Shown: piece by piece, positions 748-60,871 of the stretch
Layout: every line of letters starts with the position of its first letter
Position numbering within the stretch: position 1 is the first letter of the stretch
From: Candidatus Omnitrophota bacterium
GTDB lineage: Bacteria; Omnitrophota; Gorgyraeia; Tantalellales; Tantalellaceae
DNA: 64,000 nt
Direction: 5' to 3'
Assembly (NCBI GenBank): GCA_015231405.1
Contig: JADGBR010000004.1
Span: 189-64,188, forward strand
Translations under genes and position numbers: made by a program
The notes under the pieces: model-generated
Told to the model about the DNA's origin: nothing
The model's database searches: none
What the model saw: only the letters and a program-made list of their open reading frames with translations

Positions 748-763
748 AAAACACCATTTGAAA

Positions 764-37633: not shown

Positions 37634-37637
37634 AAGT

Positions 37638-38726: not shown

Positions 38727-38738
38727 TTTACCCCTCCC

Positions 38739-40497: not shown

Positions 40498-40498
40498 A

Positions 40499-41979: not shown

Positions 41980-41988
41980 TTAGGCCAC

Positions 41989-43356: not shown

Positions 43357-43411
43357 TATTGCTTCGTGCTTTTCCGTTTAATAAATATCTGCTCTCCGGA
43401 AGAGTTAACTT

Positions 43412-45424: not shown

Positions 45425-46591
45425 TTACGGTCTACTGGGCTTATTCCATAGACTGTTCTCGGTCTTTTTGGAAGTTATCACATTTACTCGCGCCGAAACA
45501 ACAATGCTCTCTATCTGCTTATAGATATGATGATATTTCCCGTCATTAATGATCATATCCATTGCAGCTTCCCGCTTATTCTTTCTTTCCCGACCTTTTT
45601 TGTCAAAGTATTTGAAATTAATCGTCTTAAGTTTTCTTGCCAATGGATCTGGCAAGCATTTATCTATTATCATAGCCGGCAAATAACTACGCTTATTGCT
45701 TTTCCTTCGCCCGCCCGCTATCGATCTTTCAAGATATTTCCGGAAGAAATCATTTGCGACCTCGATGTCAACATTGTCATATTGAGCAAGATATCTAGCC
45801 AAACAACACGATGCCTTATCGAGCCGCTGAGCATAATCCGCCCTATCCCTCACTGGGATATATGCATCACCTTCCCTTAGTGTATTTTTCGATATCGGTA
45901 TTACCTCACGAAACATATAGGGTTCATTAAAGACCTTCAGCTTGCCAAATATTATACTTAACCCCTGAGGGATCAATTCGCCAAAATACGGATCCGACGT
46001 GTTGTCGACCACTTCTTTCCACATCTTTCGCATATGCTCCGTCCGATGAACACCGTAAAAGCTGCTCCCCCTGTATTCATTATACAGGCTCTTTATCCTC
46101 TCGAATGGGCTATCCTGGTCGATTGACTTCGTAGTATAGTACAAAAGATTGTTCTTGAACTCCAACACCCTGTTCTCGTTTTCCTCTATATAGTGCGAGT
46201 AATATATACCGTGAGCGACCGAGTAACTCCTATTTTCCTCCAAATATGATATACACTTTTCCACCGTCTCAGGAATAATAAAATCATCATCCGCGCAAAT
46301 AACTACGTACGGCGTCTCAATTTCGTCAAGCGCATATTTAATTTTCGCCATGTAGAGTTCTTCGGACTTTACTTTTCTATATTTAATTTGCCTTATATTG
46401 AAATATTTCTCGACAACCTCGAACCCGTCATAACGGTCGCTGGTATCCATAACTATTATTTGCATAGGATACGCATAAGATTCATAGAAACGGAACAATC
46501 TTGACAGAAATAGGTACCTGTTCATCGTTGGAATGATCATCGTAATTTTGTCAAAAAGCCCGGTATTCATTTTTTCAGTTTTCATACACAT
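45425..46591 (-). CDS. GT-A-fold glycosyltransferase-like protein
   Basis: ITMIIPTMNRYLFLSRLFRFYESY...IIVMDTSD with DxD-like ICADDDFIIPE. The family is uncertain. Confidence 0.45.
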   Translation of the reverse strand: MCMKTEKMNTGLFDKITMIIPTMNRYLFLSRLFRFYESYAYPMQIIVMDTSDRYDGFEVVEKYFNIRQIKYRKVKSEELYMAKIKYALDEIETPYVVICADDDFIIPETVEKCISYLEENRSYSVAHGIYYSHYIEENENRVLEFKNNLLYYTTKSIDQDSPFERIKSLYNEYRGSSFYGVHRTEHMRKMWKEVVDNTSDPYFGELIPQGLSIIFGKLKVFNEPYMFREVIPISKNTLREGDAYIPVRDRADYAQRLDKASCCLARYLAQYDNVDIEVANDFFRKYLERSIAGGRRKSNKRSYLPAMIIDKCLPDPLARKLKTINFKYFDKKGRERKNKREAAMDMIINDGKYHHIYKQIESIVVSARVNVITSKKTENSLWNKPSRP

Positions 46592-46636: not shown

Positions 46637-48016
46637 TCAACCTTTCAAAATATTTAAATATTGCGGAGATACCGGTACTCCTATCGGCTTCTTCAATAGA
46701 TCATTCATGACACAAAAATAATACTCCAAAACATCATCAGGCAAATTAGTAAGATTGATCTCTTTTTCGTAGAAAAGATTCCCCAGGCTACTGACAAATT
46801 TCCATTGGTCCTTAACCACCCCTGCGTTTATACAATCCCTCCACAAACGTGTACCCGGCAATGGGGTCAAGTATGAAACTTTTCCCTTATTCTCTAATCC
46901 GTTCCTCCTTATAAAGCTTATCATCTCCTTTAGATCGTTCTCAGTGTCCTCGGGAAACCCTATTATGAAGTTAACCGCCACATCTATACCGTATTTTCTT
47001 AAAAGCCCTATTTTTTCTTCCATAATGTTCACATCGATATTCTTATTAACTTTATTAAGGGTCTGCTGGTTGACTGATTCGATCCCGATGGATATCACCC
47101 TCAATCCGCTATCCCTTCCCCATCCGCAGATATCCGGGTCGATCGCGTCGACCCTGCATTGGCCAATATAACTAAAATCCATTTTTCTTTCAGTTTTCCG
47201 CCTAACAAAGTCTTTAAAGTTGCTCTTTATGTCCAGAAAGTTTTCGTCGACAAAATAATATTTATTGTAGTCATACCTCGTCCTGACATAGCTTATCTCA
47301 TCCAGGACCGAATCGACGTCCCTTAGCCCTAAACCTTTTACTATTTTACTACAAAAAGAACAGTTTCCCTTACAGCCCCTTGAAGCCATGATCTCAAAAG
47401 ATTGCCCTGTTTCCCGCAGATAATTTATATAAAATTCCATATGCAACACGCTGTAATCAGGCTGAGATAGGTCCGATAACTTATATAGACCCCCGCTCTT
47501 TTTTCCCGCCAGTATCCTATAGCCTCTCTCGCCAACGACCCCATTCTTATTTCTCGCGTAACAGTCCAATGGCATCCCGGCTTTTTCACTGCCCCCGTTT
47601 ATATAATTAATTAATTCAGGGAACCTGGCTTCTCCTTCCCCGCAGACTATATAATCGCAAACACAATTATTCAATATCAGTTCAGGATCCGAAGTCGGAA
47701 GCGCCCCGCCATAGACTATTACGTTCCCGGGATCGATCGCTTTTGCGAGTCTCGCGAAGTGTTCTACCTGGTTAATATGGTCGTTACCGGCAAGAACGCT
47801 GAAGCCGACTATGGAGCCGGAGCCCGACAACCCAGCCCGGAAATGGTCATCCCGTTTTTCCGGATCAACGGGCACAAGATCGATCACTCTTGGTTCGATC
47901 CCGTTCTTTTTAAGCGCGTTAGCCAGCACAGCCAGCCATATCGGCAACTGGACCGCGACGCATTTCCTGGTCACATTCACTAAAATTACTTCTTTGCTTT
48001 TGCCAATATTTATCAT
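46637..48016 (-). CDS. B12-binding-domain radical SAM enzyme (class B)
   Basis: N-terminal VILVNVTRKCVAVQLPIWLAVLANALKKNGIEPRVIDL (B12-binding-like). Radical SAM motif MASRGCKGNCSFCSK. Confidence 0.8.
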   Translation of the reverse strand: MINIGKSKEVILVNVTRKCVAVQLPIWLAVLANALKKNGIEPRVIDLVPVDPEKRDDHFRAGLSGSGSIVGFSVLAGNDHINQVEHFARLAKAIDPGNVIVYGGALPTSDPELILNNCVCDYIVCGEGEARFPELINYINGGSEKAGMPLDCYARNKNGVVGERGYRILAGKKSGGLYKLSDLSQPDYSVLHMEFYINYLRETGQSFEIMASRGCKGNCSFCSKIVKGLGLRDVDSVLDEISYVRTRYDYNKYYFVDENFLDIKSNFKDFVRRKTERKMDFSYIGQCRVDAIDPDICGWGRDSGLRVISIGIESVNQQTLNKVNKNIDVNIMEEKIGLLRKYGIDVAVNFIIGFPEDTENDLKEMISFIRRNGLENKGKVSYLTPLPGTRLWRDCINAGVVKDQWKFVSSLGNLFYEKEINLTNLPDDVLEYYFCVMNDLLKKPIGVPVSPQYLNILKG

Positions 48017-48043: not shown

Positions 48044-48955
48044 TCAGGCAATTATTTCCTGCTTCTTTTCGCTTGAAAGGATATTGCATTCACGGCATAT
48101 TTTAATGCTGTTCTTATTCCCCGAGGAATGTATTTCCCTTAAACCCGTTATTTTACGGCCGTTAAATATCTGTATCGGGGAGTGATCATTGACATCTCCC
48201 AAAACATATTGACCATGATGAAGGTCTGAACAGCATAAAGGGACCCTGCCATCCCAGAATACCATAAACCTATCCCACAAGTGGTGACAGGCTATATCAC
48301 TTATATCATCCTGTCCCTCCCCCCCGGGATTTCCATCTCCCCTTATTTCTCCTCCCCATGAGTGCATATCATAGCCGATGATCATATCTTTTTTGCCCCT
48401 ATCGATCACGTTCTCCCAATAATTTTTAAACGCTTTCCATTCGTCAATATTGTTTTTCTGCCGTATGAATCTCATGACAAAACGGGTTTTATACCCCGCC
48501 CTGTCCCTTTTATGGATAATATCCCGGGCGTTGTCTGTTACTCTATCGAAATCGACACCCCCTCTAATGGCTTCATGCGTTTCTTTATTCACGCCGTCAA
48601 TGCTAAAAATTACCGTATCTAATCCCGAATCCAGGATCTTGTCCTGCCTTTGAGCATCCAAAAGGTCCCCATTTGTAGCGATAGCGATATTCCTATAGCC
48701 TTTGGCTTTTAAATAACTTATCTTATCAAAGATAGTTCTATCCAATAACGGTTCCCCCAAACCCCATAGATCAACCTTCTCGATTTGCTCATTATAAGGC
48801 GCCAGATCATCGGCGACCTTCCTGAAAAGCTCCATTGCCATTGTCCCTTTTTTCCTGTCCGTAGGCATGTCTATCGGGCACATACAGCAATGGGCGTTAC
48901 ACCCAAAAACCACCTCTATCTGTATCCTTTTTGGAACAATAATATCACTGCTCAT
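48044..48955 (-). CDS. radical SAM protein with SPASM/twitch-like C-terminal Cys cluster (paralogue 4)
   Basis: CNAHCCMCPID. C-terminal CHHLWDRFMVFWDGRVPLCCSDLHHGQYVLGDV...CRECNIL. Confidence 0.75.
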   Translation of the reverse strand: MSSDIIVPKRIQIEVVFGCNAHCCMCPIDMPTDRKKGTMAMELFRKVADDLAPYNEQIEKVDLWGLGEPLLDRTIFDKISYLKAKGYRNIAIATNGDLLDAQRQDKILDSGLDTVIFSIDGVNKETHEAIRGGVDFDRVTDNARDIIHKRDRAGYKTRFVMRFIRQKNNIDEWKAFKNYWENVIDRGKKDMIIGYDMHSWGGEIRGDGNPGGEGQDDISDIACHHLWDRFMVFWDGRVPLCCSDLHHGQYVLGDVNDHSPIQIFNGRKITGLREIHSSGNKNSIKICRECNILSSEKKQEIIA

Positions 48956-50111
48956 TTTTCTTACTCCTCAGCAATTCCTTGGGCTTTTCTATTTCGATCA
49001 AGGTCTTGTAAACCTGCCCGCCCCTGTGAACAAGAATATCGGGATATTTGGACAAGAATTCCAGAGCCCCATACAGTCTCTTATTTATTTCTTCCTGCGG
49101 ATAGAACTGGACACCGATCTTTTCGATCTTGGCATGAGGAAACCTCTCAAACGCGTGGACAGCGACCTCATCGAATATCTCAACGACATATTCTAATGTT
49201 TCTTTTTCATCAGATCCAGAAGCCGTCGGAAAGCCCACCATTATGTCCGTCCGCAATACAATATCAGGCCTCATTCTTTTAAGCTTTTTCAGATCGTCAT
49301 ACAGTCCAAGAACTACCGGCCGACGCTTCATCATGGACAACAAACGATCGCTTGTTGTCTGGATCAATACCTGAAAATCCTTTATTTTATTTTCACGCGT
49401 TAATAACCCGAACAGAACATCCTTATATTCATACGCCCAATCAGCGTTCACCTGGGTAAGATGAACAGCGGGAGCTATCTCCAAAACCTTTTTTATTAAA
49501 TCAGGGAAATATGGTCCGCCCAGATCCGTACCATAAGAACCCGTGTCATTGCCATGCAAAATAATGGTATGAGCGCCCGTCAGAACAGAGTTCCGCACAT
49601 CCTCGATTATTTGGGCAAAGGGCCGGCTTTTCAACTCACCGATCCCAAGTTTATGAGGACAATACGGACAATCAGACGAACATCCAGTCTGTATCAGGAT
49701 GAATCTTTTCCCGGGATCATAAAGTCTGTATTCCTCCTTGGCGGCGAATACATCCGGGTAAGGTACAGCCTCCAGAGATACCGAAGGATCGCTGACAATA
49801 TCCCCAAGCCTCTCCCACTCACCGGCGCCGATGGCCTGATCAGGGGCCAGTGTTCCAACCTCCTCGGGAAAAACCTTTGTCAAACACCCGAAAACGATCA
49901 CTTTAGCGCCTGTCCCCTTCGCCTCTTTGATCAAGCCCAAAGCTTCGTATCCGAGACTTTTAAACGCCCCGCAACAACCGACAATATGAACATCGGCGCA
50001 TTCCTTATCCGAAACCTTCTCCCATCCGTTAATATCAAGGAATCTGCCTACCCTGTTAAGTATAAGCTTGTACGGAGTGCAGACATTATCTTTTATTATA
50101 TATTTTTTCAA
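48945..50111 (-). CDS. MiaB/RimO-like radical SAM enzyme (methylthiotransferase N-terminal domain + radical SAM core, no obvious TRAM domain)
   Basis: The N-terminal MTTase-like Cys region reads VHIVGCCGAFKS...VIVFGCLT. Radical SAM motif GCSSDCPYCPH. Confidence 0.6.
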   Translation of the reverse strand: MKKYIIKDNVCTPYKLILNRVGRFLDINGWEKVSDKECADVHIVGCCGAFKSLGYEALGLIKEAKGTGAKVIVFGCLTKVFPEEVGTLAPDQAIGAGEWERLGDIVSDPSVSLEAVPYPDVFAAKEEYRLYDPGKRFILIQTGCSSDCPYCPHKLGIGELKSRPFAQIIEDVRNSVLTGAHTIILHGNDTGSYGTDLGGPYFPDLIKKVLEIAPAVHLTQVNADWAYEYKDVLFGLLTRENKIKDFQVLIQTTSDRLLSMMKRRPVVLGLYDDLKKLKRMRPDIVLRTDIMVGFPTASGSDEKETLEYVVEIFDEVAVHAFERFPHAKIEKIGVQFYPQEEINKRLYGALEFLSKYPDILVHRGGQVYKTLIEIEKPKELLRSKKNEQ

Positions 50112-51268
50112 CGCAATTCTCCCCAGGCAATTACATCCGCGTTCGCTCCGATCTCGCTCAGCTTTCGTATTATCTCGCTTTTATAGACTCCATTCATTAC
50201 TAATATCTTTTTTTTGACGCACCCTCTCAAGACATCAGGGGAAAAGATCTTCTTCGCCACCCTGGGCAAATATTTTTCCTGCTTATTCGGGTTTATATCT
50301 ATTACGTATTCTATATTTTTAAGTATCTCATCCGGCAGATTATTCAGAAAAACAACCCCCTTACCGGAAGCTCCCCATACGGATAGTTTTCCTGAGTCCC
50401 TAACAAATGAAATGTCACGCACCCTGGCGCTGTCAATGCGAGCACTGTCATATTGACGCCGCCCGAGATGTCCCTTCCCCGCCTCATAATCCTTGCCGGT
50501 ACGTCCATAATACGCTGACAATAGGATATATTGCCCGCCGTAAACGTTCCTGACATTCTCTATGCCGAAACCCAGATCAGCCAACATCGTAGCCAGCGAA
50601 GCTTTGGTGAAATAATTACAATGTTCATATGTAATGTCAATGTAAGCGCCATTTTCCATTATCCATTCAAGGTCAGGCACCTCCGCTATCAATAAAGTCC
50701 CTTGCTTAATGGCGGGGCTTTTCGTCAACCTCCGGAGAAAAGATACCGGCTCGCCCAAATGCTCCAAAACATGTCTGAGTATTACCGCGTCAAAACACTG
50801 TTTTTCATTTTCAGGGGCAAAATACTCTTTGGCAATATCAACCCCGCCGGTCCCAGGCGAATTACCTTTGTAAGCATTATCGTAACCTTTACCCTTGGCA
50901 CCTGTTTTTTCGCACAGTTTTTTTAAAAACTCACCTTGTCCGCATCCGATCTCAAGGATTTGCCAGGTTTTGTCAATGAATGAACTCAGCTGGCCGACTA
51001 CTTCATCGATATACGCGTTGTAAACGCCCGAATATTCCCTTGAACTCTCATAATTATCATCATAATCAAAATCTGAGACGTTAAAATCAACGTTAAAAAC
51101 CAACCCGCAACTGTCACATTCCACTAGCCCTATCTCTCCATTTTTACATCTGGAAGCTTCGTCCTGTATGTCGTACACCACATTATTCAAAACAGGGCAT
51201 CTCCCATTCCTGTATATGACATCACGTGTGATATCTTTTTCACAACCGGTACATTTACATTGCCCCAT
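50108..51268 (-). CDS. sugar C-methyltransferase (Zn-ribbon N-terminus + class I SAM MTase; TylC3/NovU-like)
   Basis: N-terminal Cys4 ribbon CKCTGC...CDSCG. MTase motif ILEIGCGQGEF. C-terminal C-methyltransferase-like domain. Confidence 0.7.
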   Translation of the reverse strand: MGQCKCTGCEKDITRDVIYRNGRCPVLNNVVYDIQDEASRCKNGEIGLVECDSCGLVFNVDFNVSDFDYDDNYESSREYSGVYNAYIDEVVGQLSSFIDKTWQILEIGCGQGEFLKKLCEKTGAKGKGYDNAYKGNSPGTGGVDIAKEYFAPENEKQCFDAVILRHVLEHLGEPVSFLRRLTKSPAIKQGTLLIAEVPDLEWIMENGAYIDITYEHCNYFTKASLATMLADLGFGIENVRNVYGGQYILLSAYYGRTGKDYEAGKGHLGRRQYDSARIDSARVRDISFVRDSGKLSVWGASGKGVVFLNNLPDEILKNIEYVIDINPNKQEKYLPRVAKKIFSPDVLRGCVKKKILVMNGVYKSEIIRKLSEIGANADVIAWGELR

Positions 51269-51279
51269 TGCGCCCTTTA

Positions 51280-51999
51280 TTACGTTATTCTTCTCAGGAA
51301 ACCGTTCGGGCTATATGTAACACCCATACGGTTGTAATAATTATCGATCGCCCAGTTTGGATATTTCCCGACAAACTCCTCGATGGCGCGCAACGGATTA
51401 TCATGGGACCATTCAGGCTTACCCGTCGGGACGTCACTCAACATTTTCTGCACACCGTCCATAACTACCATGTAACTCCCTGGGGTAACGACACTTGAAT
51501 ACAGCATGATCTCCTTACGAACGTGATCATAAGTATGATTTGAATCCAGGACAACCAGCACTTTCTCGTCCTCCCTGATCAATTTTTTGGCCTCTAGAAA
51601 GACCTCTTCACTGGTGGAACTCCCCTCTATCAGAGTGATCCATTTCGCCATAGGGTGGTTAATTATGTTATTTCTATTATGATCCCTAATCTCAATATCT
51701 ATCCCTATTACTCTGCCCCCGCCTAGCAATTGCAGGATCGACGCGTAAAAAATAGCCGAACCGCCGTGAGCGACGCCTGTTTCCACTATCACATCCGGTT
51801 TAATTTGCCATATCAGTTCCTGCATCATGACTATGTCAAAGGGCAGCTGGATTATCGGTATACCCAGCCATTTGGGATGATAAACTATCCGATGAAGAAA
51901 AGACGCTTTCAGCCATAACTCATTCAGTAATTCCATGCCTTTATCACTGTAAACATCTACTTCCTCTAAATACCCGTCTTTGTCAGTTCTTATCTTCAT
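51280..51999 (-). CDS. CmcI-family (cephalosporin hydroxylase-like) O-methyltransferase, rhamnosyl/sugar O-methyltransferase type
   Basis: GIPIIQLPFDIVMMQELIWQIKPDVIVETGVAHGGS, the characteristic CmcI-family core. Confidence 0.7.
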   Translation of the reverse strand: MKIRTDKDGYLEEVDVYSDKGMELLNELWLKASFLHRIVYHPKWLGIPIIQLPFDIVMMQELIWQIKPDVIVETGVAHGGSAIFYASILQLLGGGRVIGIDIEIRDHNRNNIINHPMAKWITLIEGSSTSEEVFLEAKKLIREDEKVLVVLDSNHTYDHVRKEIMLYSSVVTPGSYMVVMDGVQKMLSDVPTGKPEWSHDNPLRAIEEFVGKYPNWAIDNYYNRMGVTYSPNGFLRRIT

Positions 52000-52045
52000 G
52001 ATCCCTTCCCGGTTAGAAACAACTTACCGCTGCTCAGTTATTAAA

Positions 52046-52879
52046 TCATGGCTTGATCATCAACCCTTGCCCTGTGGGAAGAGTCAGTATTTCCACCCCT
52101 AAGGATAAAGCGACTTTATCGATAGCTTCTTTCTGCTTCTCATGCCCGCCCCATCCGTAATCGTCAAATACGACAATTGCCCCCGGGACAAGTTTTGGCC
52201 AAAAATACTTAATGGATTCTACTTCCGGAATAACACAATTCATATCTATCGACAAATAAGCGACTTCACCGATCTCCACAGTTTGTAAAGTCCGTGGCAC
52301 AGGGCCCCTTACTATTATCACATTTGAATACTTCTTAAAACTATCGCGGACGTAATCGTAAAGATCCTCTTCATAGACTTTAGCCAAACGGTCATACTCC
52401 CACGTTGTCGAAAAATCTTTGTCCAATCCTTTAAATGTATCGAATAAGTAAAATTTTCTATCAGGCATACCCGCAAAATCCAGATATTGAATGATCGACA
52501 TGGCATTACTGCCTTTCCAGACGCCGCATTCGACGAAATCTCCCCTGAGATTCCTGGCATGATATGCCGCCCATAAGTTTACATGCCGCGGCCAACCTTC
52601 AAAATTATCATCATGCGCGCCTATCTGTCTCATACCAATTTCACACGATTTAATAAAATTAGGATTTTTCATGAAATCACAGTTCTTAAAAGACATCAAC
52701 CCGCTTTTATAATATTTGGGCCTTCCGATAACTATGGCCCTTTGTCCATTGAGCAGCTGAACGACCCTTGCCCCTAAAGGTGTTTTCCTTAACATGTTTT
52801 TTACAGCGATAACAGCCGCAGTGGCTAAACGCGACAGGCCCGGATATTTCCTCTTAAGATAACTTCTGATCTGTCGCAT
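52046..52879 (-). CDS. TylF/MycF-family sugar O-methyltransferase
   Basis: GDFVECGVWKGSNAMSII and the VFDDYGW region are typical of the macrocin-O-MTase family. Confidence 0.7.
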   Translation of the reverse strand: MRQIRSYLKRKYPGLSRLATAAVIAVKNMLRKTPLGARVVQLLNGQRAIVIGRPKYYKSGLMSFKNCDFMKNPNFIKSCEIGMRQIGAHDDNFEGWPRHVNLWAAYHARNLRGDFVECGVWKGSNAMSIIQYLDFAGMPDRKFYLFDTFKGLDKDFSTTWEYDRLAKVYEEDLYDYVRDSFKKYSNVIIVRGPVPRTLQTVEIGEVAYLSIDMNCVIPEVESIKYFWPKLVPGAIVVFDDYGWGGHEKQKEAIDKVALSLGVEILTLPTGQGLMIKP

Positions 52880-52897
52880 TCTTTCTCCTCCAGGCCT

Positions 52898-53914
52898 CTA
52901 GACTTTAACTTCGGACCTTTTCCATGACACATCGCAATCGCTGATGTATATTATTTTGCTCCCTTGAGACTCAAAATTGAAACGGCTTTCCTTAAATCCG
53001 GCAAATGTCAGCCTTAAGTTATCCTGGTATTTTTCCTCGCAATAAAGCAGCAAAAACCCCCCCCCGCCGGCACCGAGAAGTTTTCCGCCGCGCGCGCCGG
53101 CTTTCAAAGCTTTCTTATACATGGTATCGATCTCGTCGTTGGTGATACCATCGGCGAGCTGGACCTTATTCTTCCAGCATTCGTTAAGGATATCCGCGAA
53201 AGCGTCAAGATCATTATTGACGATCGCCATTCTTAACTCTTTTGCCAGAGCTACCAGCCTGTCCAGGTATCTTGTCTTTTCGGGTATATTTTTATTCTGT
53301 TTTTCCAGGATGGTAGATGAGACCCTTGTCACTCCGGTATAAAAAAGCATTAGCCTGTTATTTAACGTCTCTTTTAGCTCGCGGGGGCAGATCACCGGAT
53401 CCACAAAAATACTGTCGTCGTGGTTGAACTGTATGTAATTGAATCCTCCGTACGCCGCGGCATATTGGTCCTGTTTACCTATAGGATGCCCGAGGATATC
53501 GATCTCTATCCTGCAAGCGTCTTCGGCCAGCTTTTGAGGAGAGGCATATCTGCCCGTATACGCGTAGAGGGCGTTCAATACCCCTACAGCCAGGCTGCTG
53601 GATGAGCCCAAACCGACGCCTGCGGAGCCTAAAGGGACATCCCCCATGTAAACTATGTCGATCCCCTTGTCTATCCCTACGAGCTTCAGCGATTCCCGTA
53701 TTATATTGTGCTCGATCTTATCTACGCTGTCTACGATCTCGGTACTCGAATAACTGACTCTGATAAGATCGTCAAATTTTTTATTGACCGTTATGTAGAT
53801 ATATTTGTCGACCGCCGTGCTTACGACGGCTCCTGATCCGTTGCGGTAATAATTCTCGAAATCAGTCCCCCCCCCGGCGAAACTGACCCTCATCGGCGTT
53901 CTTGAAATGATCAT
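52898..53914 (-). CDS. hddA: GHMP sugar kinase (D-glycero-D-manno-heptose 7-phosphate kinase HddA-like)
   Basis: MIISRTPMRVSFAGGGTDF and the GHMP motif PLGSAGVGLGSSSS. Confidence 0.8.
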   Translation of the reverse strand: MIISRTPMRVSFAGGGTDFENYYRNGSGAVVSTAVDKYIYITVNKKFDDLIRVSYSSTEIVDSVDKIEHNIIRESLKLVGIDKGIDIVYMGDVPLGSAGVGLGSSSSLAVGVLNALYAYTGRYASPQKLAEDACRIEIDILGHPIGKQDQYAAAYGGFNYIQFNHDDSIFVDPVICPRELKETLNNRLMLFYTGVTRVSSTILEKQNKNIPEKTRYLDRLVALAKELRMAIVNNDLDAFADILNECWKNKVQLADGITNDEIDTMYKKALKAGARGGKLLGAGGGGFLLLYCEEKYQDNLRLTFAGFKESRFNFESQGSKIIYISDCDVSWKRSEVKV

Positions 53915-53936
53915 TTCCCTCCTATTAGGATCGTAC

Positions 53937-54812
53937 TCATGCCCACCCCGCGATCGTTTCCCTGATACCTTCCCCTATGCCGTATCGAGGTTCCCAGCCT
54001 GTTTTATTTTTGATACGCGTTATATCAGCCCAGTAATCGTGATCAGTTGTATCATGGCCCATCCCCGGTCTACCCAGGGCCATCCCGAATTCCGAGGCTA
54101 TGATATCCGCTATTTCAGACACACGTGTAGAGTACCCGGACCCGACATTATAGATCCCTGGCTGTTCGCCTTTCTCGAGAATATCGCACATAGCGGAGGC
54201 CGCGTCTTTCGCGAAGATAAAATCATTTTTCACTAAAGGAGTTTTAATAGCGGGTTCTTCACCCTTGATCAAACGATCTATCATGCAGGGTATCAGCGAT
54301 CCTTTTTTCTGTCCGGGTCCATACGCGTAGAATACTCTAGCCCAGAAAAAGTTAAACCCCTTATCCTCCGCCAATTTCTGTCCAAACTCTCTTATCCGCC
54401 TCTTCGCCCGGGCAAAATCATTTATAGCCTTCTCCTCCATTCCTTCACTCAAGGCCCCGTAATAGGCCCCATACTCCCAGCAGCTCCCCGCGCAAAGTAT
54501 TTTCCCGCATTTAATACCGGAAAGGAAGGAGAGAAGCCCCTCACCCATCTCGGCGTTTTTCGCTGAGATATCGGAAGAATAATCAGGCAGTCCCTCCCAA
54601 GCCATATGTATCGCGGCTTCCGGCAGAAAAGCGGCCACTTCCTTGCTCCAACCCGACATATACGAAAGGTCTCCCCTGATATAGCCCGCCGTCAGGTCCG
54701 AACTCCCGGGGATGCTCCGTGACAACACCAGTACTTCGTGTTTTCTATTTAATAGTTCGCGAACAACATATTTGCCGATAAAACCTGTCCCACCGGTTAC
54801 GAACACGCGCAT
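53937..54812 (-). CDS. NAD(P)-dependent sugar epimerase/reductase (extended SDR)
   Basis: MRVFVTGGTGFIGKYVVREL. ~290 aa. Confidence 0.75.
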   Translation of the reverse strand: MRVFVTGGTGFIGKYVVRELLNRKHEVLVLSRSIPGSSDLTAGYIRGDLSYMSGWSKEVAAFLPEAAIHMAWEGLPDYSSDISAKNAEMGEGLLSFLSGIKCGKILCAGSCWEYGAYYGALSEGMEEKAINDFARAKRRIREFGQKLAEDKGFNFFWARVFYAYGPGQKKGSLIPCMIDRLIKGEEPAIKTPLVKNDFIFAKDAASAMCDILEKGEQPGIYNVGSGYSTRVSEIADIIASEFGMALGRPGMGHDTTDHDYWADITRIKNKTGWEPRYGIGEGIRETIAGWA

Positions 54813-55378
54813 TATCCTTCCAACCCCCCAAATTTATCGTTAAACTCTTTAAAACTCCACGCCCCCAGATCCCTATCGGAAATTACCGGATCATTGACCG
54901 GCCAGTCGATCCCGATGTCAGGGTCGTTCCATTTAATGGCCCCCTGTTTATCAGGAGCATAATAGTTATCCATTTTATACTGGAGCGCGCATTTATCGGT
55001 GAGCGAGCAAATCCCCATCGCGAAGCCCCTTCCTACATAGAGCATTTTTTCTCCATTCCCTTTAAGCATCTCGCTACCCCACTCACCAAAAGTCTCTGAA
55101 CCTTTCCTCAAGTCCAGGAAAACGACATAGATATCACCGTAGAGGGCCCTGATTAGTTTTGTTTCCGCAAAAGGCTGGAACTGAAAATGCAGTCCCCTTA
55201 CAGTTCCCTTTTTTTCCGAATACGAATGGTTTTCGTTTACCCATTCCCGGTGCAGCCCTTTTTCCCTGAACGCCCGGTCATCATAAGTTCTCATAAAATA
55301 GCCCCTTTCATCCCAGAGCGGGGCAAGTTTTACGACAAAAACGCCCTTAAGACCCTTTTCAACTATTTCCATGAGCAT
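54812..55378 (-). CDS. sugar-nucleotide 3,5-epimerase (RmlC-like cupin)
   Basis: GVFVVKLAPLWDERGYFMRTY...VRGLHFQ...QYKMDNYYAPDKQGAIKWNDPDIGIDWP matches the RmlC signature throughout. Confidence 0.85.
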   Translation of the reverse strand: MLMEIVEKGLKGVFVVKLAPLWDERGYFMRTYDDRAFREKGLHREWVNENHSYSEKKGTVRGLHFQFQPFAETKLIRALYGDIYVVFLDLRKGSETFGEWGSEMLKGNGEKMLYVGRGFAMGICSLTDKCALQYKMDNYYAPDKQGAIKWNDPDIGIDWPVNDPVISDRDLGAWSFKEFNDKFGGLEG

Positions 55379-56621
55379 AACACCGTCCCTCTACAACATC
55401 GATGGAAGGTAATGGCACGATAAAACCCCCGGAATAACCGTAGTTTTTCCTGAGATCATCAATGATCTCGTCCTTAAAATTCCAGGCGAGTATCAACACA
55501 TGATCGGGATCATTTTCCATTAGCTCGGCAGGTGATACTATCCTGATATGTGTCCCCGGTGTATATTTCTTTTGTTTCATAACATTCTTATCGGCTATAT
55601 CGGTTAATAATTCAGGTCCGATCCCGCAGAAATTCAATAAAGTCGAACTCCTGGCCGAAGCCCCATACCCGGCAATAATGTTCCCGTCATCTCTTATTCT
55701 CCGCAAAACAGCCAAAAGTTCCTTTCTATGATTATCGGCCCTGACGGCGAAAGTTTTCCACACGGAAAGCTCATTTATTCCGGAAACCTCTTCTTTGTTC
55801 CTGTACGAGCAAACAATGTCGTTTCCAGAAGCTTCTCCTTTCCGGATGAACAATATGATATTCCCAGCGTTTATCGGGCTTCTTTCTATGTCCTGCACGA
55901 ACAACCCATAGCGGTTGAACAATAATTCGGCGCTTTTCAAAGTATAATAAAATAAATGTTCGTGATATATCGAATCGTAATGCAGATCTTCAAGAATGGC
56001 CCCCGCATAGTGAAATTCAACGACCAGTAAACCAGCGTCCGACACGACAATGCTGAGCCCTTTAACAAAATCGGTCAAATTAGCGACGTGCGGTAAAACA
56101 TTCCTCGCGATGACGATCCCGGCCTCCCCATATTTCTCTACTACCTTACGGGCGGCGTCTTCGCCAAAGAAACCGCATTCCGTCCTTACTCCGTTTTGAT
56201 CGGCCAATTCAACGATATTGGCGGCCGGGTCCATCCCAAGAACTTTGAATCCATTCTCTAAAAATGGCTTTAAAAATGTTCCGTCATTACTGGCCGCTTC
56301 AAATATATACCCCGGATCAAGGCCGCGCTTACGCTCATCGACCATATCGAAGAATCTTTTCGAATACCCTATAGTCGTCGGAGATGTACCGCTTACCCAG
56401 ACATACTTTGAGAAGAGCTTCCCGGGATCGACGGTATGGTCCAGCTGGATAAGAGCGCAATCGGGGCATCTGACCAGGGAAAGCGGATAAGTGATCTCGT
56501 CCTCTACCCGCGAATCGGTGAAAGAATTGGCGCATGGATGCTTCCCAAGATCGAAAAACCGTTCCAAACGGCGGCCGCCGCATGATCTGCAAAGGTCCAC
56601 ATGGCCTTCCATTTTATCCAT
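55359..56621 (-). CDS. sugar C-methyltransferase (Zn-ribbon + SAM MTase + C-methyltransferase C-terminal domain; TylC3-like), second copy
   Basis: CRSCGG...CPDCALIQ ribbon. MTase GMDPAANIV. Same architecture as the 50108..51268 gene. Confidence 0.7.
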   Translation of the reverse strand: MDKMEGHVDLCRSCGGRRLERFFDLGKHPCANSFTDSRVEDEITYPLSLVRCPDCALIQLDHTVDPGKLFSKYVWVSGTSPTTIGYSKRFFDMVDERKRGLDPGYIFEAASNDGTFLKPFLENGFKVLGMDPAANIVELADQNGVRTECGFFGEDAARKVVEKYGEAGIVIARNVLPHVANLTDFVKGLSIVVSDAGLLVVEFHYAGAILEDLHYDSIYHEHLFYYTLKSAELLFNRYGLFVQDIERSPINAGNIILFIRKGEASGNDIVCSYRNKEEVSGINELSVWKTFAVRADNHRKELLAVLRRIRDDGNIIAGYGASARSSTLLNFCGIGPELLTDIADKNVMKQKKYTPGTHIRIVSPAELMENDPDHVLILAWNFKDEIIDDLRKNYGYSGGFIVPLPSIDVVEGRCYAHGNS

Positions 56622-57654
56622 TTGAATTAACCCTCAACCCTTTGTCCAGCTTACCGAGACCCATCAACTCTTTAAGCTTTATGAGCCTGTTAAATTTACT
56701 ACCCCTGAAATCATATTCTTTCAGATCGGCTTTCTCGAACATACCAACAAGTTCCTTTCCGCCTTTACGGAGGTCCCACTCAGGCTTATAGAAATCTTTC
56801 AATTTAGTCAGTATTTTTTCAAAACTGACCCTGTAAGTTCTGGAATCCGATCCATGCTCCCCCGTAAATGTCAATTCGCTGCCGGGCACAGAATCTCTGG
56901 CGGCTTCAGCCAGTTCCCTGACGGTATAATTACCGTTCTCTATGCCAACGTTAAAAGATTCGCCGTTCACCAGTTCAGCCGGTGCTTTTACTCCGGCTAA
57001 AAAAGCGCTGGAAACGTCCCTCACATGCACCACCGGCCTCCAAGGAGTCCCGTCGCTCTTTATCTCTACCTTCTTCGTAGTATAAGCGCTGGCGACCAGA
57101 TTATTAAAAACGATATCGCACCTTAGCTTCGGGCTTACCCCGAAAACCGTGGACGGGCGAAAACAAACCACTTCAAAGTGATCGGAAGATAGTTCTTTAA
57201 TAGCGCATTCGGCTTCCCACTTTGTTCGGGCATAAGAGGTAAGCGGAGCTTTTTTGCTATTATCCTCGTCAAGTTCACCCGCAGTATCGGAAACACCGTA
57301 CATGCTTTGCGATGACGCGTAAATAAAACGCCTTACCCCGGCGAGCTTGGCTAACTTCGCGGCTCTGACCGTTCCATGGAGGTTGATATCTTCAGTCAGG
57401 TGCGGCATCAGTTCACCTAAAGGATCATTGGAAAGGGCCGCGAGATGGATAACACAGTCGATACCCTCAAGGTCCGCGGCATCGATATCCCTAATATCTT
57501 TTTTTATCTGCCTGATATTCAACGGGTTGTCATACAGAAAACAATCGGAATAATAATCGATATCGAACCCGGTAACATTATACCCGTTCTCTAAAAGCAC
57601 TTCGGTCAGGATCGACCCTATATATCCCATATTACCGGTTACCATTATATTCAC
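56614..57654 (-). CDS. NAD-dependent sugar-nucleotide epimerase/dehydratase (extended SDR)
   Basis: MNIMVTGNMGYIGSIL and YARTKWEAE (YxxxK). Confidence 0.8.
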   Translation of the reverse strand: MNIMVTGNMGYIGSILTEVLLENGYNVTGFDIDYYSDCFLYDNPLNIRQIKKDIRDIDAADLEGIDCVIHLAALSNDPLGELMPHLTEDINLHGTVRAAKLAKLAGVRRFIYASSQSMYGVSDTAGELDEDNSKKAPLTSYARTKWEAECAIKELSSDHFEVVCFRPSTVFGVSPKLRCDIVFNNLVASAYTTKKVEIKSDGTPWRPVVHVRDVSSAFLAGVKAPAELVNGESFNVGIENGNYTVRELAEAARDSVPGSELTFTGEHGSDSRTYRVSFEKILTKLKDFYKPEWDLRKGGKELVGMFEKADLKEYDFRGSKFNRLIKLKELMGLGKLDKGLRVNSNG

Positions 57655-57664
57655 AATGTTCCCC

Positions 57665-58387
57665 TTATTTTGTGGTTATATCCATCGTCGATAAAAATTC
57701 AGCCGTTACGGTAAGATCCCGTTCGGTCGTTATGTAGTAATACCCCGCGTCTGTCCTATAAGCGGCAAGCAGCCTCTTCGCCGCTATGACAGGCAGAACA
57801 TCCTTCTCAAACGAAATATTCCCGTCCGGTATGAACTCGAGGATCTTTTTATCGAGGACAAAGAACCCTATATCGACCCCGTTAAGGCCTTTCTCCCGCC
57901 TTTGCTTATCGTATTTCACGACAAAGCCTTCTTTGTCCAGCATAATATTATTTTCATACCCGTATTCCCCTCGGCCGTCGGTATTATTGTAAACGGTCGT
58001 CATGAATAAAGCGCCGGAACGGTCGTAAAACTCTGTCATCCTATCAAGATCCAAAGGCCAGTAATTATCGCAATACAACAATAGGAACTTATCTTCCAAT
58101 AACTCCGCCGCGTTTTTAAGCCTTGTTCCCGTTTCCATATCTACCGCGCCCGAAGAGTACCTTATCGTGAGCCCCAGCGTTGATCCATCAGAAAAATATT
58201 CCATGATCTTTCCCCCTAAATATCCGACCAAAATAACAATATCGGATATCCCGCGATCCTTCAGCATCAGAATAAGATGACGCAAAAAGGGATAACCGTT
58301 GACCATTACCATCGGCTTGGGGCAGAGATCCGTCAACGCACCCAACCGGCTCCCCCTCCCTCCCGCGAGTATAACTGCCTGTTTCAT
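57665..58387 (-). CDS. hddC: sugar-1-phosphate nucleotidyltransferase (HddC/RmlA-like)
   Basis: MKQAVILAGGRGSRLGALTDLCPKPMVMVNG. Confidence 0.8.
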   Translation of the reverse strand: MKQAVILAGGRGSRLGALTDLCPKPMVMVNGYPFLRHLILMLKDRGISDIVILVGYLGGKIMEYFSDGSTLGLTIRYSSGAVDMETGTRLKNAAELLEDKFLLLYCDNYWPLDLDRMTEFYDRSGALFMTTVYNNTDGRGEYGYENNIMLDKEGFVVKYDKQRREKGLNGVDIGFFVLDKKILEFIPDGNISFEKDVLPVIAAKRLLAAYRTDAGYYYITTERDLTVTAEFLSTMDITTK

Positions 58388-58402: not shown

Positions 58403-60220
58403 CTATATTTTCGCGAGTTTGGTGTATAACCCGTTATTCCTAAGCAGCTCCTCCGGAGTTCCTCTTTCCAAAATGCCGCCCTTTCCCAAAACTATTATAT
58501 CGTCAAAGTCCCGGAGGAACGAAAGCCTGTGAGCGACGCTTATAATTGTCTTTTCTTTACCAAATTCTTCCAAAGCCGATTTGATCGCGCGTTCAGATTC
58601 CGCGTCCAAGTCCGAAGTTGCCTCGTCAAAGATCAGAATATGAGGATTCACGAGTATCGCCCTCGCGATAGCTATCCTTTGCCTCTGGCCACCCGACAAC
58701 AAAACCCCCCTATCCCCGACTATCGTATCGAACCCCTTAGGCAAACTGAGTATAAAATCATTGATATGCGCTTTTTTACACGCTGAAACCAGCTCCTCCT
58801 CACTGGCGGTCCCTCTCGCGAACAGGATATTGTTCCGCACAGTGTCCTGGAACAAAAACACATCCTGGTCCACAACCCCGATGGCCCTTCTCCATATCCT
58901 CACGTCAAACTCTTTCAAATTCAAGCCATCGATAGATATATCTCCAGAGCAGGGATCGTAAAATCTCAATAACAAGTTCAATATCGTTGTCTTGCCGCAG
59001 CCTGAAACTCCGACGATACCCAGCCTTTTCCCGGCACGGATATCAAAAGAAACATTGTGAAGCGCGCTCCCCCTTCCTTCGTAATTGAACGTCACATTAT
59101 TAAAACATATCCTGTTGAAAGACCCGGTAAAAACCCTTTCCCCGCCTATAACGTAGGGTTTATTCTTCCTGTCAAGGAAATCGATGACCCGACGGTACGC
59201 CGGCATATTAGTTGCGGTTATGTTCTTTACATAATTAAACTCATTTATCGGAGACATCATCCTGTAGAATATTATGATGAACATGAAAATCAGCGATAGG
59301 TCACCTGCTTCGCCTTCCTTAACTAGAACGAATGAACTTACCGCGAGTATCAGCGCCAGGCTGATTGCCCCGTAAAACTCAAGAGCCGGCTTCAGGGATC
59401 CTCTTAACATCAATAATTTGTAAGATGTGCCGTTGACCATATCAACTTCATTTTCGAATCTTTTCGTAGAACTTTTTTCCCTGTCAAACAAGCGAACGAC
59501 CCTGACACCATGCAAAGCCTCTAGAAAAAGGTTGTTCAGCTCCATAATTTTCGTATAGTACAGCCTTGCGGTGCTGGCGGATATTTTCTGCAGCATGCCG
59601 ATAAGCATCGCCCCGGCACCCATTATCAGGAAAGCGAAAAGGGTTAATTTCCAGGACAAAGAAATGAGCAACGCTACGCAAACTAACATTATGCAGAATT
59701 TGGAGATATATTTCCCTATGCCCCCTATCATGATCCCGATCGAGCTTGTAAAATCTACGGCCATGGTCTGCAAATGACCCTTTTTCTGATCATCAAGATA
59801 CGCTACCCCGACATCCATGACTTGTTCGAATATCTTCATCCTAAATTTTTTGGTTATAAGGTTCTGAAATTTGATCGTCAGATTATTATTTAAAAAGAAG
59901 GAATAAGATTTAAGGAGCGTAAAAAACACAAGCAAACCGGATATCCAGCGTAAACGGCTCGCGATCGTATGATCTTTGAACACGTCCAAGATCCTGCCAA
60001 AAGGAAAAGGCAACTCGGCGGTTGATACTGGATGCACCCCTTCCAATAGCGGCATGATAAGACCCAAAGTTACGCCCTCAAACACCGCACATAAAATACC
60101 CGTAACTACTATAAAAAATACCAGGGATCTAAATTCTCTTACAACCTCAAGGATAGGAGAAAGCATCCTCTTAGCGTCTTCGACCCTCAATTTGATTTCT
60201 GACATCACAACGGTCTTCAT
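58403..60220 (-). CDS. ABC exporter, fused permease-ATPase (MsbA/PglK-like, candidate lipid-linked glycan flippase)
   Basis: The N-terminal 6-TM domain is followed by the Walker A GVSGCGKTT, the signature LSGGQRQRIAIAR and the Walker B ILIFDEATSDLD. Confidence 0.85.
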   Translation of the reverse strand: MKTVVMSEIKLRVEDAKRMLSPILEVVREFRSLVFFIVVTGILCAVFEGVTLGLIMPLLEGVHPVSTAELPFPFGRILDVFKDHTIASRLRWISGLLVFFTLLKSYSFFLNNNLTIKFQNLITKKFRMKIFEQVMDVGVAYLDDQKKGHLQTMAVDFTSSIGIMIGGIGKYISKFCIMLVCVALLISLSWKLTLFAFLIMGAGAMLIGMLQKISASTARLYYTKIMELNNLFLEALHGVRVVRLFDREKSSTKRFENEVDMVNGTSYKLLMLRGSLKPALEFYGAISLALILAVSSFVLVKEGEAGDLSLIFMFIIIFYRMMSPINEFNYVKNITATNMPAYRRVIDFLDRKNKPYVIGGERVFTGSFNRICFNNVTFNYEGRGSALHNVSFDIRAGKRLGIVGVSGCGKTTILNLLLRFYDPCSGDISIDGLNLKEFDVRIWRRAIGVVDQDVFLFQDTVRNNILFARGTASEEELVSACKKAHINDFILSLPKGFDTIVGDRGVLLSGGQRQRIAIARAILVNPHILIFDEATSDLDAESERAIKSALEEFGKEKTIISVAHRLSFLRDFDDIIVLGKGGILERGTPEELLRNNGLYTKLAKI

Positions 60221-60241: not shown

Positions 60242-60751
60242 TTATTTCAAAAATTGTTCCAGCAACTGCAAATTATTCGTCAACCCCTTCATCTTTGTGA
60301 GCATCTTATCCATTTCCTCTATTTTTGTCCTGTGTTTTCTTATTTCAGATTGCTGTACCTCGTCCATTTTAGAGATATCAACTGAACTGATCTTGTTTAA
60401 TGACCTACTGACCAATGCTTCCCCTCTATTTAAGATACTCGCAAATATCTCTTTTCCCCTTGTCATGACAAACCCCATGATATTGCTATTGGCTACGTAG
60501 TAATCCTTACGGCTCCCGTTACTGAATGTTTTTGTAACTGCGTTCCAACGTTCAAGATGCCTTATATTTATGCTCGCGTTTCCCTTACTCATACGGCACT
60601 TTTTGGCAAGCTCATCTAATGAAACAGGATTCTCGCTAAAATAAAGCGCGGCATATAATTGCCCCATCGACTTATTCAACCGCATTTTCATCGCGATCTG
60701 TCCCGCATTGAAGATCACATCGTCAATTATATCCTGATAGTCTTTGGCCAT
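60242..60751 (-). CDS. HTH transcriptional regulator (GbsR/MarR-like)
   Basis: LDELAKKCRMSKGNASINIRHLERWNAV (winged helix) with a C-terminal coiled coil. Confidence 0.6.
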   Translation of the reverse strand: MAKDYQDIIDDVIFNAGQIAMKMRLNKSMGQLYAALYFSENPVSLDELAKKCRMSKGNASINIRHLERWNAVTKTFSNGSRKDYYVANSNIMGFVMTRGKEIFASILNRGEALVSRSLNKISSVDISKMDEVQQSEIRKHRTKIEEMDKMLTKMKGLTNNLQLLEQFLK

Positions 60752-60871
60752 TATTTCCTCCGTTTAATGCATTCTAAATGATTTAAATTCTATATCAACC
60801 AGCCACAGTTGTCAACATAAGGTATGGTAAATCGCGATTTGGGTATTATGATCTGTTATTCGCGGAAGGGG

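Follow-up and report, generated by a model that had tools for sequence, protein, structure and literature searches.

Which sugar is made by a gene block that joins heptose-type activation enzymes to a set of sugar methyltransferases, and where does this sugar go? The question is raised by nine genes at positions 50108–58387 of a 64,000-nucleotide stretch of DNA from Candidatus Omnitrophota bacterium (contig JADGBR010000004.1 of assembly GCA_015231405.1, forward-strand positions 189 to 64,188), here called the window. An original prediction, made from the sequence alone, had described the block as a guanosine diphosphate (GDP)-heptose-type branch resembling the 6-deoxy-heptose pathways of Campylobacter and Yersinia. 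The present analysis indicates that the block is probably a variant, built for heptose, of a cassette for nucleotide-sugar C-methylation that is widespread, with a C-methyl heptose as its predicted product. The evidence consists of domain identities, catalytic residues, folds and conserved synteny; from these we infer which substrates and nucleotide are used, where the methyl groups go and what the acceptor is.

The nine open reading frames (ORFs), which the original prediction had placed correctly, all lie on the minus strand with spacings of −20 to +46 bp, and because of these short gaps they are read as one operon. Domains were assigned by Pfam and NCBIfam profile searches of the ORF translations, which agreed with every domain type that had been named. 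The minus-strand gene run extends to both sides of the block.

Probable Heptose Activation

The first gene of the block (57665..58387) encodes a 240-residue protein of the Pfam family NTP_transferase, an HddC-like sugar-1-phosphate nucleotidyltransferase. Its top matches in the PDB are 6jq8 and 5xhw (E = 3e-19), deposited as a Yersinia 6-deoxy-D-mannoheptose pathway protein, which we take to be Yersinia HddC. The 338-residue GHMP kinase (52898..53914) is HddA-like, and HddA is its top NCBIfam match. Among solved structures, the HddA-type kinases 3k85, WcbL (4usk/4usm) and 4n3o match it at E = 1e-38 to 1e-41, followed by fucokinase at 1e-14, a lead of 27 orders of magnitude in E-value.

Orthologues of the kinase, 62–69% identical, are found in metagenome-assembled genomes (MAGs) of Omnitrophota, Nitrospirota, Desulfobacterota and Planctomycetota and in one Asgard archaeal MAG. 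Ten related loci (L001, L004–L008, L088–L090 and L168) were compared with the window. All except L168 share a common gene order: a nucleotidyltransferase, in some loci extended by a C-terminal HAD domain, an SIS gene, a 346-residue short-chain dehydrogenase/reductase (SDR), an optional C-methyltransferase, RmlC, a 291-residue SDR, the kinase, a CmcI-type methyltransferase, a second methyltransferase (MT2) and radical S-adenosylmethionine (SAM) genes. L168 has the same module genes in a rearranged order, and one protein encoded on this contig is identical to a protein of a Parcubacteria MAG. The heptose gene module thus defined recurs in several phyla.

It is the company kept by these orthologues that points to heptose. 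A GmhA-like SIS neighbor, a GmhB-domain fusion, or both accompany the kinase and transferase orthologues in eight of the ten related loci, with an SIS gene in seven and a GmhB-type HAD in four. GmhA is the top match for every one of the SIS proteins, below its cutoff, and the fused HAD domain of L001 scores 184.5 bits, above the GmhB equivalog cutoff of 178. The orthologues that carry the C-terminal GmhB domain (L001, L005, L007 and L168) are 41–52% identical to the transferase of the window. The association also appears in the wider kinase family (40–54% identity), where an SIS gene lies within 10 kb in 24 of 39 loci and a GmhB-like HAD gene in 17 of 39. This count covers kinase-bearing loci of at least 8 kb from a metagenome scan that returned only three close relatives, so it informs the GmhA/GmhB association and says little about the frequency of the C-methyltransferase. 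The heptose-type branch that had been proposed therefore holds on the strength of its relatives, which suggest that the kinase, closest to the HddA type, and the transferase belong in a GmhA/HddA/GmhB/HddC-type context.

Predicted Oxidation and Epimerization

The second gene (56614..57654) encodes a 346-residue extended SDR that resembles Cj1427, a nucleoside diphosphate (NDP)-heptose C4 dehydrogenase. Its family is 58–71% identical across phyla. The best PDB match is 6vo6, at E = 6e-33, and the next best reaches 1e-19. An AlphaFold2 model (mean predicted local distance difference test score, pLDDT, 90.9) gave 6vo8 and 6vo6 as its best Foldseek matches, with template modeling (TM) scores of 0.83–0.87. 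By their PDB titles, both entries are Cj1427, bound to NADH and GDP-D-glycero-D-mannoheptose. The 4-epimerases follow the Cj1427 structures in the fold ranking, and the first 4,6-dehydratase appears at rank 45. Cj1427 oxidizes GDP-heptose at C4, and its bound NADH is recycled by alpha-ketoglutarate in a ping-pong mechanism (PMC10680097; PMC7949155).

The active-site stretch of the 346-residue protein, SSQSMYG...YARTK, contains the Ser-Tyr-Lys triad without the Asp/Glu of the dehydratases. Dehydratases have STDEVYG or STSELYG at this place, the first of which is visible in the solved SDR 2hun in a profile alignment. The Thr-(Asp/Ser)-Glu signature of 4,6-dehydratases is present in neither SDR of the block, which read SSQSMYG (346 residues) and GSCWEYG (291 residues). 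By sequence and modeled fold, the 346-residue SDR is thus best classed as a Cj1427-like C4 dehydrogenase and not as a 4,6-dehydratase. Because the enzyme is Cj1427-like, the sugar probably keeps its 6-hydroxyl group (6-OH) and would therefore not be a 6-deoxy-heptose, and the dehydratase of the original prediction has to be given up.

That prediction amounts to a GDP-6-deoxy-heptose pathway of the Campylobacter/Yersinia DmhA/DmhB type, in which one SDR is a 4,6-dehydratase, the other a reductase, and the two C-methylations take place on a 6-deoxy-4-keto intermediate. It draws on the same enzyme classes (kinase, transferase, cupin epimerase and two extended SDRs), and by their PDB descriptions the solved C3-methyltransferases all act on 6-deoxy-4-keto sugars. 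One related locus, L090, has a different SDR (6330–7300) in the slot of the Cj1427-like enzyme in an otherwise collinear module. This SDR is 26% identical to the LegB-type dehydratase encoded elsewhere in the window, and the exchange could point to a 6-deoxy form of the pathway in other organisms. For the block in the window, however, the 6-deoxy route is unlikely: SSQSMYG has neither the Asp/Glu of STDEVYG nor the Glu of STSELYG, the 346-residue SDR lies nearest to Cj1427 and the 4-epimerases, and the 291-residue SDR has neither the dehydratase motif nor the catalytic Tyr.

The 291-residue protein (53937..54812; Pfam Epimerase/GDP_Man_Dehyd) is an atypical extended SDR, presumed to act in C4 reduction. 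Six orthologues, that of the window and five others, were compared. F133 and K137 are invariant among them, as are C111, E113 and Y114, and the Rossmann motif is intact in five, the sixth being truncated at its N-terminus. In profile alignments, F133 falls on the catalytic Tyr of the YxxxK motif in 2hun, 4zrm, 6dnt and 3vps. With Phe in place of this Tyr in all orthologues, the second SDR is not a canonical reductase, and a plain 4-ketoreductase is unlikely. The same protein was also considered as the missing dehydratase and rejected, since its motif does not match.

Between the two SDR genes lies the gene for a 188-residue RmlC-type cupin epimerase (54812..55378). It passes the TIGR01221 equivalog (173.6 bits; cutoff 155.75), and the stretches RGLHFQ, TKLIRA, QYKMDNYY and SDRD are readable in its sequence. 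In the PDB it matches RmlC of the deoxythymidine diphosphate (dTDP) pathway at 1e-41 and the C. jejuni GDP-heptose epimerases at 1e-17.

The Methyltransferases

The gene between the Cj1427-like SDR and the epimerase (55359..56621) encodes a 420-residue NDP-sugar C-methyltransferase of the MtmC/KijD1/TcaB9/TylC3 type. Methyltransf_13 (70 bits), Methyltransf_23 and Methyltransf_14 (148.8 bits) all score above their Pfam cutoffs, and the full length of the protein matches MtmC (4rv9, E = 3e-68), KijD1 (5t64) and TcaB9 (3ndi). The protein keeps the four zinc-binding Cys residues and, in TcaB9 numbering, Tyr76, His181, Tyr222, Glu224 and His225, a set that matches the TcaB9 mutants named in PDB entries. 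In a neighbor-joining tree, calculated without support values and without NovU, EvaC or SnoG sequences, it groups with the C-methyltransferases of the heptose modules, beside the enzymes of cytidine diphosphate (CDP)-hexose cassettes and the actinomycete enzymes MtmC, KijD1 and TcaB9. On its sequence, the 420-residue protein is therefore classed as a canonical sugar C3-methyltransferase.

MT2, the last of the nine genes (50108..51268), is more divergent. The 386-residue protein matches Methyltransf_23 and part of Methyltransf_14 (30.2 bits) and is 24% identical to the 420-residue C-methyltransferase (E = 3e-14). The zinc domain Methyltransf_13 was not detected by Pfam; the four Cys are conserved nonetheless. 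Within the MT2 family, C51, C54, H170, E215 and H216 are invariant and C6 and C9 nearly so, giving a CxxC...CxxC pattern. These positions align with the zinc site, His181 and Glu224-His225 of TcaB9; Tyr76 is kept as well, and position 222 is Thr and not Tyr. The AlphaFold2 model (pLDDT 91.9) matches over its full length only MtmC, KijD1 and TcaB9, with TM scores of 0.80–0.83, while other methyltransferases reach at most 0.39. In the tree, MT2 forms a deep sister clade without a characterized member. By alignment and modeled fold, MT2 thus belongs to a sister family that shares the three-domain architecture of the sugar C3-methyltransferases, and carbon methylation by MT2 is plausible. An assignment of MT2 as a generic O- or N-methyltransferase, which its weak and partial Pfam domain and undetected zinc domain might suggest, was rejected on the grounds of its fold matches, its place in the tree and the alignment of its family.

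The original prediction counted both proteins as TylC3/NovU-type C-methyltransferases. Both do fall in the sugar C3-methyltransferase superfamily, but the phylogeny that was suggested as a check, here in a tree without NovU, EvaC and SnoG, places only the 420-residue enzyme in the clade of MtmC, KijD1 and TcaB9, with MT2 apart.

The window shares with the actinomycete enzymes MtmC (4rv9), KijD1 (5t64), TcaB9 (3ndi) and TylC3 the three domains, the zinc and catalytic residues and the full-length alignment of the C-methyltransferase, together with the fold, zinc site, His181, Glu224 and His225 of MT2. In place of the dTDP-2,6-dideoxy or 6-deoxy hexoses of the actinomycetes, the predicted substrate in the window is a 4-keto-heptose with its 6-OH. 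The genes sit in a glycan operon of an uncultured Gram-negative-type bacterium, and MT2 forms its separate clade and lacks Tyr222.

The two predicted O-methyltransferases, of the CmcI and TylF types, were both borne out at the level of Pfam families, and they differ in how firmly they are tied to the module. The 239-residue member of the CmcI/rhamnosyl-O-methyltransferase family (51280..51999) scores 241 bits with RMNT_CmcI (PF04989; cutoff 23.2) and 98.6 bits with the NCBIfam equivalog RhmsylMtase (cutoff 400). It is 54–59% identical in L001 and L005–L007 and is a conserved member of the module. The 277-residue TylF-family protein (52046..52879) scores 71 bits with PF05711 (cutoff 23) over profile positions 88–231 of 264 and has no NCBIfam match. 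Its gene is a variable accessory one: L001, L005 and L006 have no counterpart in this slot, and in L007 and L090 it lies elsewhere.

The CDP-Hexose Cassette

The methyltransferases of the block are not confined to heptose loci. A scan of species-representative genomes confirmed MT2 relatives at no fewer than 533 places, and a canonical C-methyltransferase lies within 10 kb of the MT2-type gene in 56 of 83 loci, usually with RmlC, an SDR and CmcI. In Noviherbaspirillum denitrificans (L087, 5576–12978), such a set is headed by RfbF (474 bits) and a CDP-glucose 4,6-dehydratase (464 bits). The cassette of RfbF, CDP-glucose 4,6-dehydratase, RmlC, a TylC3-type C-methyltransferase, an SDR, MT2 and CmcI is found in L087 and in about 55 other loci among L008–L087. 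Its hosts include Verrucomicrobiota, Bacteroidota, Planctomycetota and Pseudomonadota (Proteobacteria), and MT2 and CmcI are also found in methanogen genomes. Cultured carriers include Noviherbaspirillum denitrificans TSA40, Pelagicoccus mobilis KCTC 13126 and Desulfoluna spongiiphila AA1. The CDP-hexose cassette appears to be uncharacterized; going by its gene content, many environmental bacteria are predicted to make a 6-deoxyhexose with C- and O-linked methyl groups.

Window and cassette have the C-methyltransferase, RmlC, SDR, MT2 and CmcI in common, in a similar order. Unlike the window, the cassette contains a glucose-1-phosphate cytidylyltransferase (RfbF) and a CDP-glucose 4,6-dehydratase (RfbG), leading to a 6-deoxyhexose, and has neither a GHMP kinase nor a Cj1427-like SDR. 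The block in the window can thus be read as this cassette with its CDP-hexose front end replaced by one for heptose, together with an oxidase of the Cj1427 type.

The distribution of the cassette runs counter to the statement in the original prediction that C-methyl sugars are typical of actinomycete antibiotics and not of cell-surface glycans, since the set with two methyltransferases occurs frequently, in many phyla, within glycan clusters of the CDP-hexose kind. A 3-C-methyl sugar at the cell surface is also known from Coxiella burnetii, where virenose (6-deoxy-3-C-methylgulose), proposed to be made from a GDP-sugar, is part of the lipopolysaccharide (LPS) O-antigen (PMC5843353, PMC3204966). 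The likeness to the window, drawn from the sugar and not from gene sequence, is that of a C-methyl-branched sugar in a surface glycan. Unlike the heptose predicted here, virenose is a 6-deoxyhexose from GDP-mannose.

The Radical SAM Extension

The conserved unit does not end with MT2. It extends past 50108 to about 44401, with five more genes on the minus strand. The first (48945..50111) encodes a MiaB/RimO-like radical SAM enzyme that scores 145 bits with TIGR00089 (cutoff 251), covers model positions 23–339 of 429 and has no TRAM domain. A MiaB-like gene directly follows MT2 in three of the four heptose loci that have MT2 (L005, L006 and L007). These orthologues are 53–59% identical, and C11, C46/C47, C76 and the CxxxCxxC motif are invariant in them. 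Methylthiolation of a sugar by such a TRAM-less enzyme is conceivable.

Next come a radical SAM/SPASM enzyme (48044..48955; Pfam Radical_SAM and SPASM), 49–50% identical in L001, L006 and L007, and a class B, B12-binding radical SAM enzyme (46637..48016; Pfam B12-binding and Radical_SAM), 53% identical in L001. The NCBIfam matches of the latter are B12-dependent radical SAM methyltransferase families, all below cutoff, and it is a candidate C-methylase. A glycosyltransferase (45425..46591; TIGR04440, 171 bits, cutoff 70; Pfam GT2), 29% identical in L007 and L090, is a candidate for transfer of the modified sugar. A second radical SAM/SPASM enzyme (44401..45420; Pfam Radical_SAM and SPASM), with weak relatives in L006 and L007 (21–23%), is encoded by the last gene before that for LegB. 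Radical SAM genes of the SPASM type and one of the B12 type come next in L006 and L007 as well, and L007 has in addition a glycosyltransferase of the window type. Save for two weak matches of 21–28% identity, radical SAM genes were not seen in the loci of the CDP-hexose cassette; they go with the heptose form.

Four further radical SAM genes, two B12-binding and two SPASM, lie at 13124–14254, 23845–25218, 26638–27645 and 31616–33184, making eight in about 36 kb of glycan island.

A Proposed Pathway and Its Alternatives

With the order of reactions taken from the order of the genes, a pathway can be proposed. The HddA-like kinase would phosphorylate D-glycero-D-manno-heptose-7-phosphate at O1 to heptose-1,7-bisphosphate, with the GmhA and GmhB activities supplied from outside the window, and the HddC-like transferase would join heptose-1-phosphate with a nucleoside triphosphate, probably GTP, to an NDP-heptose, most likely GDP-heptose. 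The Cj1427-like SDR would then oxidize C4 without 4,6-dehydration, leaving the 6-OH in place, and the 420-residue C-methyltransferase would methylate a carbon adjacent to the 4-keto group, presumably C3 by analogy with every solved relative. The RmlC-type cupin would epimerize C5; to act on C3 as well, it would have to precede the methylation. C4 would be reduced by the atypical 291-residue SDR or another enzyme. The CmcI- and TylF-type enzymes would O-methylate the sugar, and MT2 would add a further methyl group, possibly a second C-methyl. The MiaB-like, SPASM and B12 radical SAM enzymes might rework the sugar before the glycosyltransferase passes it to a surface glycoconjugate, which may be built jointly with the neighboring legionaminic-acid-type sugar.

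A number of observations count against this pathway. The kinase scores 162 bits with the HddA equivalog NF049969 (cutoff 600) and the nucleotidyltransferase 82 bits with the HddC equivalog NF049965 (cutoff 300), and the glucose-1-phosphate cytidylyltransferase 1tzf, a CDP-glucose enzyme, scores level with the Yersinia entry for the transferase. Because both enzymes miss the equivalog cutoffs, GDP is only the likeliest nucleotide; of the GDP-heptose route with HddA and HddC that had been predicted, the resemblance to the nearest solved structures remains and the strict family assignment does not. The nucleotide is made uncertain also by the epimerase, which is nearer to the dTDP enzymes than to the GDP-heptose epimerases. 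As the original prediction had said, gmhA and gmhB are missing: a six-frame tblastn search of the 64-kb window with the GmhA-like and GmhB sequences of the related loci found neither, and no window ORF scanned with Pfam has an SIS or HAD domain. The slot of the SIS gene in the relatives is a 10-bp gap in the window. The catalytic Tyr of the sugar 4-ketoreductases Cj1428, RmlD and Rmd is absent from the 291-residue SDR, which weakens its assignment to the reduction that closes the core of the pathway. Literature searches found no description of a C-methyl heptose pathway, we know of no C-methyl heptose, and the carriers of the heptose module are all uncultured. As to the reduction, MtmC is reported to be a methyltransferase and a ketoreductase in one, and by analogy one of the two methyltransferases could in principle supply it.

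The low HddA and HddC scores and the missing gmhA and gmhB would also fit a salvage-type route, in which the kinase–transferase pair works on some other sugar-1-phosphate or on a hexose and the product is a C-methyl hexose, as in the CDP-hexose versions. The transferase also resembles enzymes for mannose-1-phosphate, glucose-1-phosphate and N-acetylmuramic acid-1-phosphate in NCBIfam, and the same methyltransferases accompany CDP-glucose enzymes in L087 and many other loci. However, the orthologues (kinase 62–68%, transferase 41–52%) are embedded with GmhA-like and GmhB genes, and the SDR that works alongside has an enzyme specific for GDP-heptose as its nearest match. The original prediction had itself named hexose-1-phosphate enzymes, such as a GalK/RmlA pair, as a finding that would overturn it. 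Fucokinase and galactokinase are far weaker matches of the kinase; for the transferase, the glucose-1-phosphate enzyme scores level with the Yersinia entry. Taken together, a hexose product is fairly unlikely.

The empty SIS slot can be read in yet another way, as the mark of a decaying or non-autonomous heptose branch that has lost gmhA and gmhB and makes no product; the transferase likewise lacks the HAD fusion of four relatives. Such a remnant is quite improbable, as all ORFs are intact and tightly packed with their catalytic residues kept, and L008 is also without SIS and HAD in the 13.8 kb retrieved. Bacteria that make LPS-core heptose carry gmhA and gmhB elsewhere in the genome, which counts against a remnant as well.

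The proposed C-methyl heptose pathway can be carried further, more tentatively. A module of about 13 genes might make a hyper-modified heptose with one or two C-methyl branches, O-methylation, B12-dependent C-methylation and possibly methylthiolation, displayed on the surface by Omnitrophota, Nitrospirota, Patescibacteria-like and other uncultured bacteria, in which the Tyr-less SDR and MT2 would carry out reactions new for their folds. This extended form of the scheme is possible and, as a whole, doubtful.

Comparison with Campylobacter

A close characterized counterpart is the GDP-D-glycero-L-gluco-heptose route of Campylobacter jejuni, in which GmhA, HddA, GmhB and HddC are followed by Cj1427 (MlghA), Cj1430 (MlghB) and Cj1428 (MlghC) and later by O-methylation (PMC10680097, PMC7949155, PMC3546167). 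The two systems share an HddA-type kinase, an HddC-type transferase, a Cj1427-like C4 dehydrogenase that spares the 6-OH, an RmlC-fold epimerase, a further SDR, methylation of the heptose and a neighboring, GDP-based legionaminic acid pathway. The window differs in having one or two C-methyltransferases between oxidation and epimerization, a last SDR with Phe for the catalytic Tyr and an epimerase nearer to dTDP-RmlC, in lacking gmhA and gmhB at the locus, and in the four radical SAM genes that follow. Its enzymes are only about 30% identical to those of Campylobacter. Judged by its genes, the predicted pathway resembles the Cj1427/Cj1430/Cj1428 route with C-methylation added and not the 6-deoxy-heptose route.

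Glycan Context

Upstream of the block, also on the minus strand, lies a gene for an ABC exporter of the HepA/MsbA/PglK type (58403..60220; Pfam ABC_membrane and ABC_tran), with fused transmembrane and nucleotide-binding domains. It scores 422 bits with the NCBIfam family HepA_fam_ABC and 387 bits with MsbA, both below cutoff, and is a candidate exporter of a glycan or lipid-linked sugar; L089 has an ABC gene in the same position, 33% identical. It is preceded by the minus-strand gene for a MarR-type regulator (60242..60751; Pfam MarR_2, weak and below cutoff), probably the first gene of the transcription unit. Just 5′ of the MarR gene is a promoter-like site (60815..60787; TTGACA-17-TAGAAT) that agrees with 11 of 12 consensus positions and is a consensus match only. 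The transcription unit may run from about 60800 to at least 44401.

Downstream, on the minus strand, the heptose unit is followed by a near-complete legionaminic-acid-type nonulosonic acid block (33757–44404), with LegB, a DegT aminotransferase, a PglD-like acetyltransferase, NeuB, a 2-epimerase, a CBS-domain nucleotidyltransferase, a CMP-transferase, a GFO/IDH/MocA oxidoreductase and an SDR. LegB scores 473.9 bits (cutoff 475). Glycosyltransferases of the GT2 and GT4 families and a PMT_2 membrane glycosyltransferase are also encoded in the window. The surroundings of the related modules vary: a Wzx-type flippase in L001, an ABC transporter ATPase gene and a sulfotransferase in L005, and FlgM, CheR and TPR-GT2 genes in L006. 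From this gene content, the destination of the sugar is likely a surface glycoconjugate.

Further upstream of the MarR gene are an AMP-binding acyl ligase (60872–62248), a 106-residue ORF without a family match, possibly a carrier protein (62236–62556), and a WbuX N-acetyl sugar amidotransferase (62574–63764; 328 bits, cutoff 203). With the MarR regulator, the exporter, the ligase and the small ORF just upstream, and with TylF-, CmcI- and TylC3-type enzymes known as classic antibiotic tailoring enzymes, the block might instead decorate a secreted small-molecule natural product. This is very improbable, given that domain scans of the 64 kb found no polyketide synthase, nonribosomal peptide synthetase or aglycone genes, that the neighbors are the legionaminic-acid-type pathway, the GT2/GT4 and PMT_2 glycosyltransferases and WbuX, and that related modules lie beside a Wzx-type flippase, sulfotransferases, or FlgM and TPR-GT2 genes.

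A few other features of these loci were noted. In L168, the rearranged module (685–4333) adjoins genes for ATP sulfurylase, APS kinase and a sulfotransferase, near NeuB, and the glycan of this organism may also be sulfated. In the nonulosonic block of the window, a Fic gene (41209–41979) and a gene with Schlafen/AlbA_2, HATPase_c_4 and helix-turn-helix domains (41989–43356) are inserted between LegB and the rest. A minus-strand ORF of 3490 residues (1021–11493) combines Laminin_G_3 domains and an RHS repeat with a Pre-toxin TG domain close to the C-terminus, and looks like a giant RHS-type polymorphic toxin. The large ORFs at 15704–17785, 21867–22883, 25232–26641 and 29558–31606 have no Pfam match. 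Scans of the 64-kb window for transfer RNA genes and Rfam families found none. The guanine–cytosine skew is negative in each 2-kb bin of 1–64000, and its cumulative value declines steadily to −5.8, consistent with nearly all genes being on the minus strand.

Significance

The known modifications of heptoses in bacterial glycans are epimerization, deoxygenation and O-methylation. If the proposed pathway is true, a carbon-branched heptose would be a new type of monosaccharide, and TylC3-type chemistry would extend to 4-keto-heptoses that retain the 6-OH. As judged from their sequences, several enzymes of the module appear to be without a characterized close relative, namely MT2, the Tyr-less SDR, the TRAM-less MiaB-like enzyme and the B12 radical SAM enzyme. 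In many phyla, paired genes of the C-methyltransferase type are a common feature of glycan clusters, a finding at odds with the idea that branched sugars are a trait of antibiotic producers.

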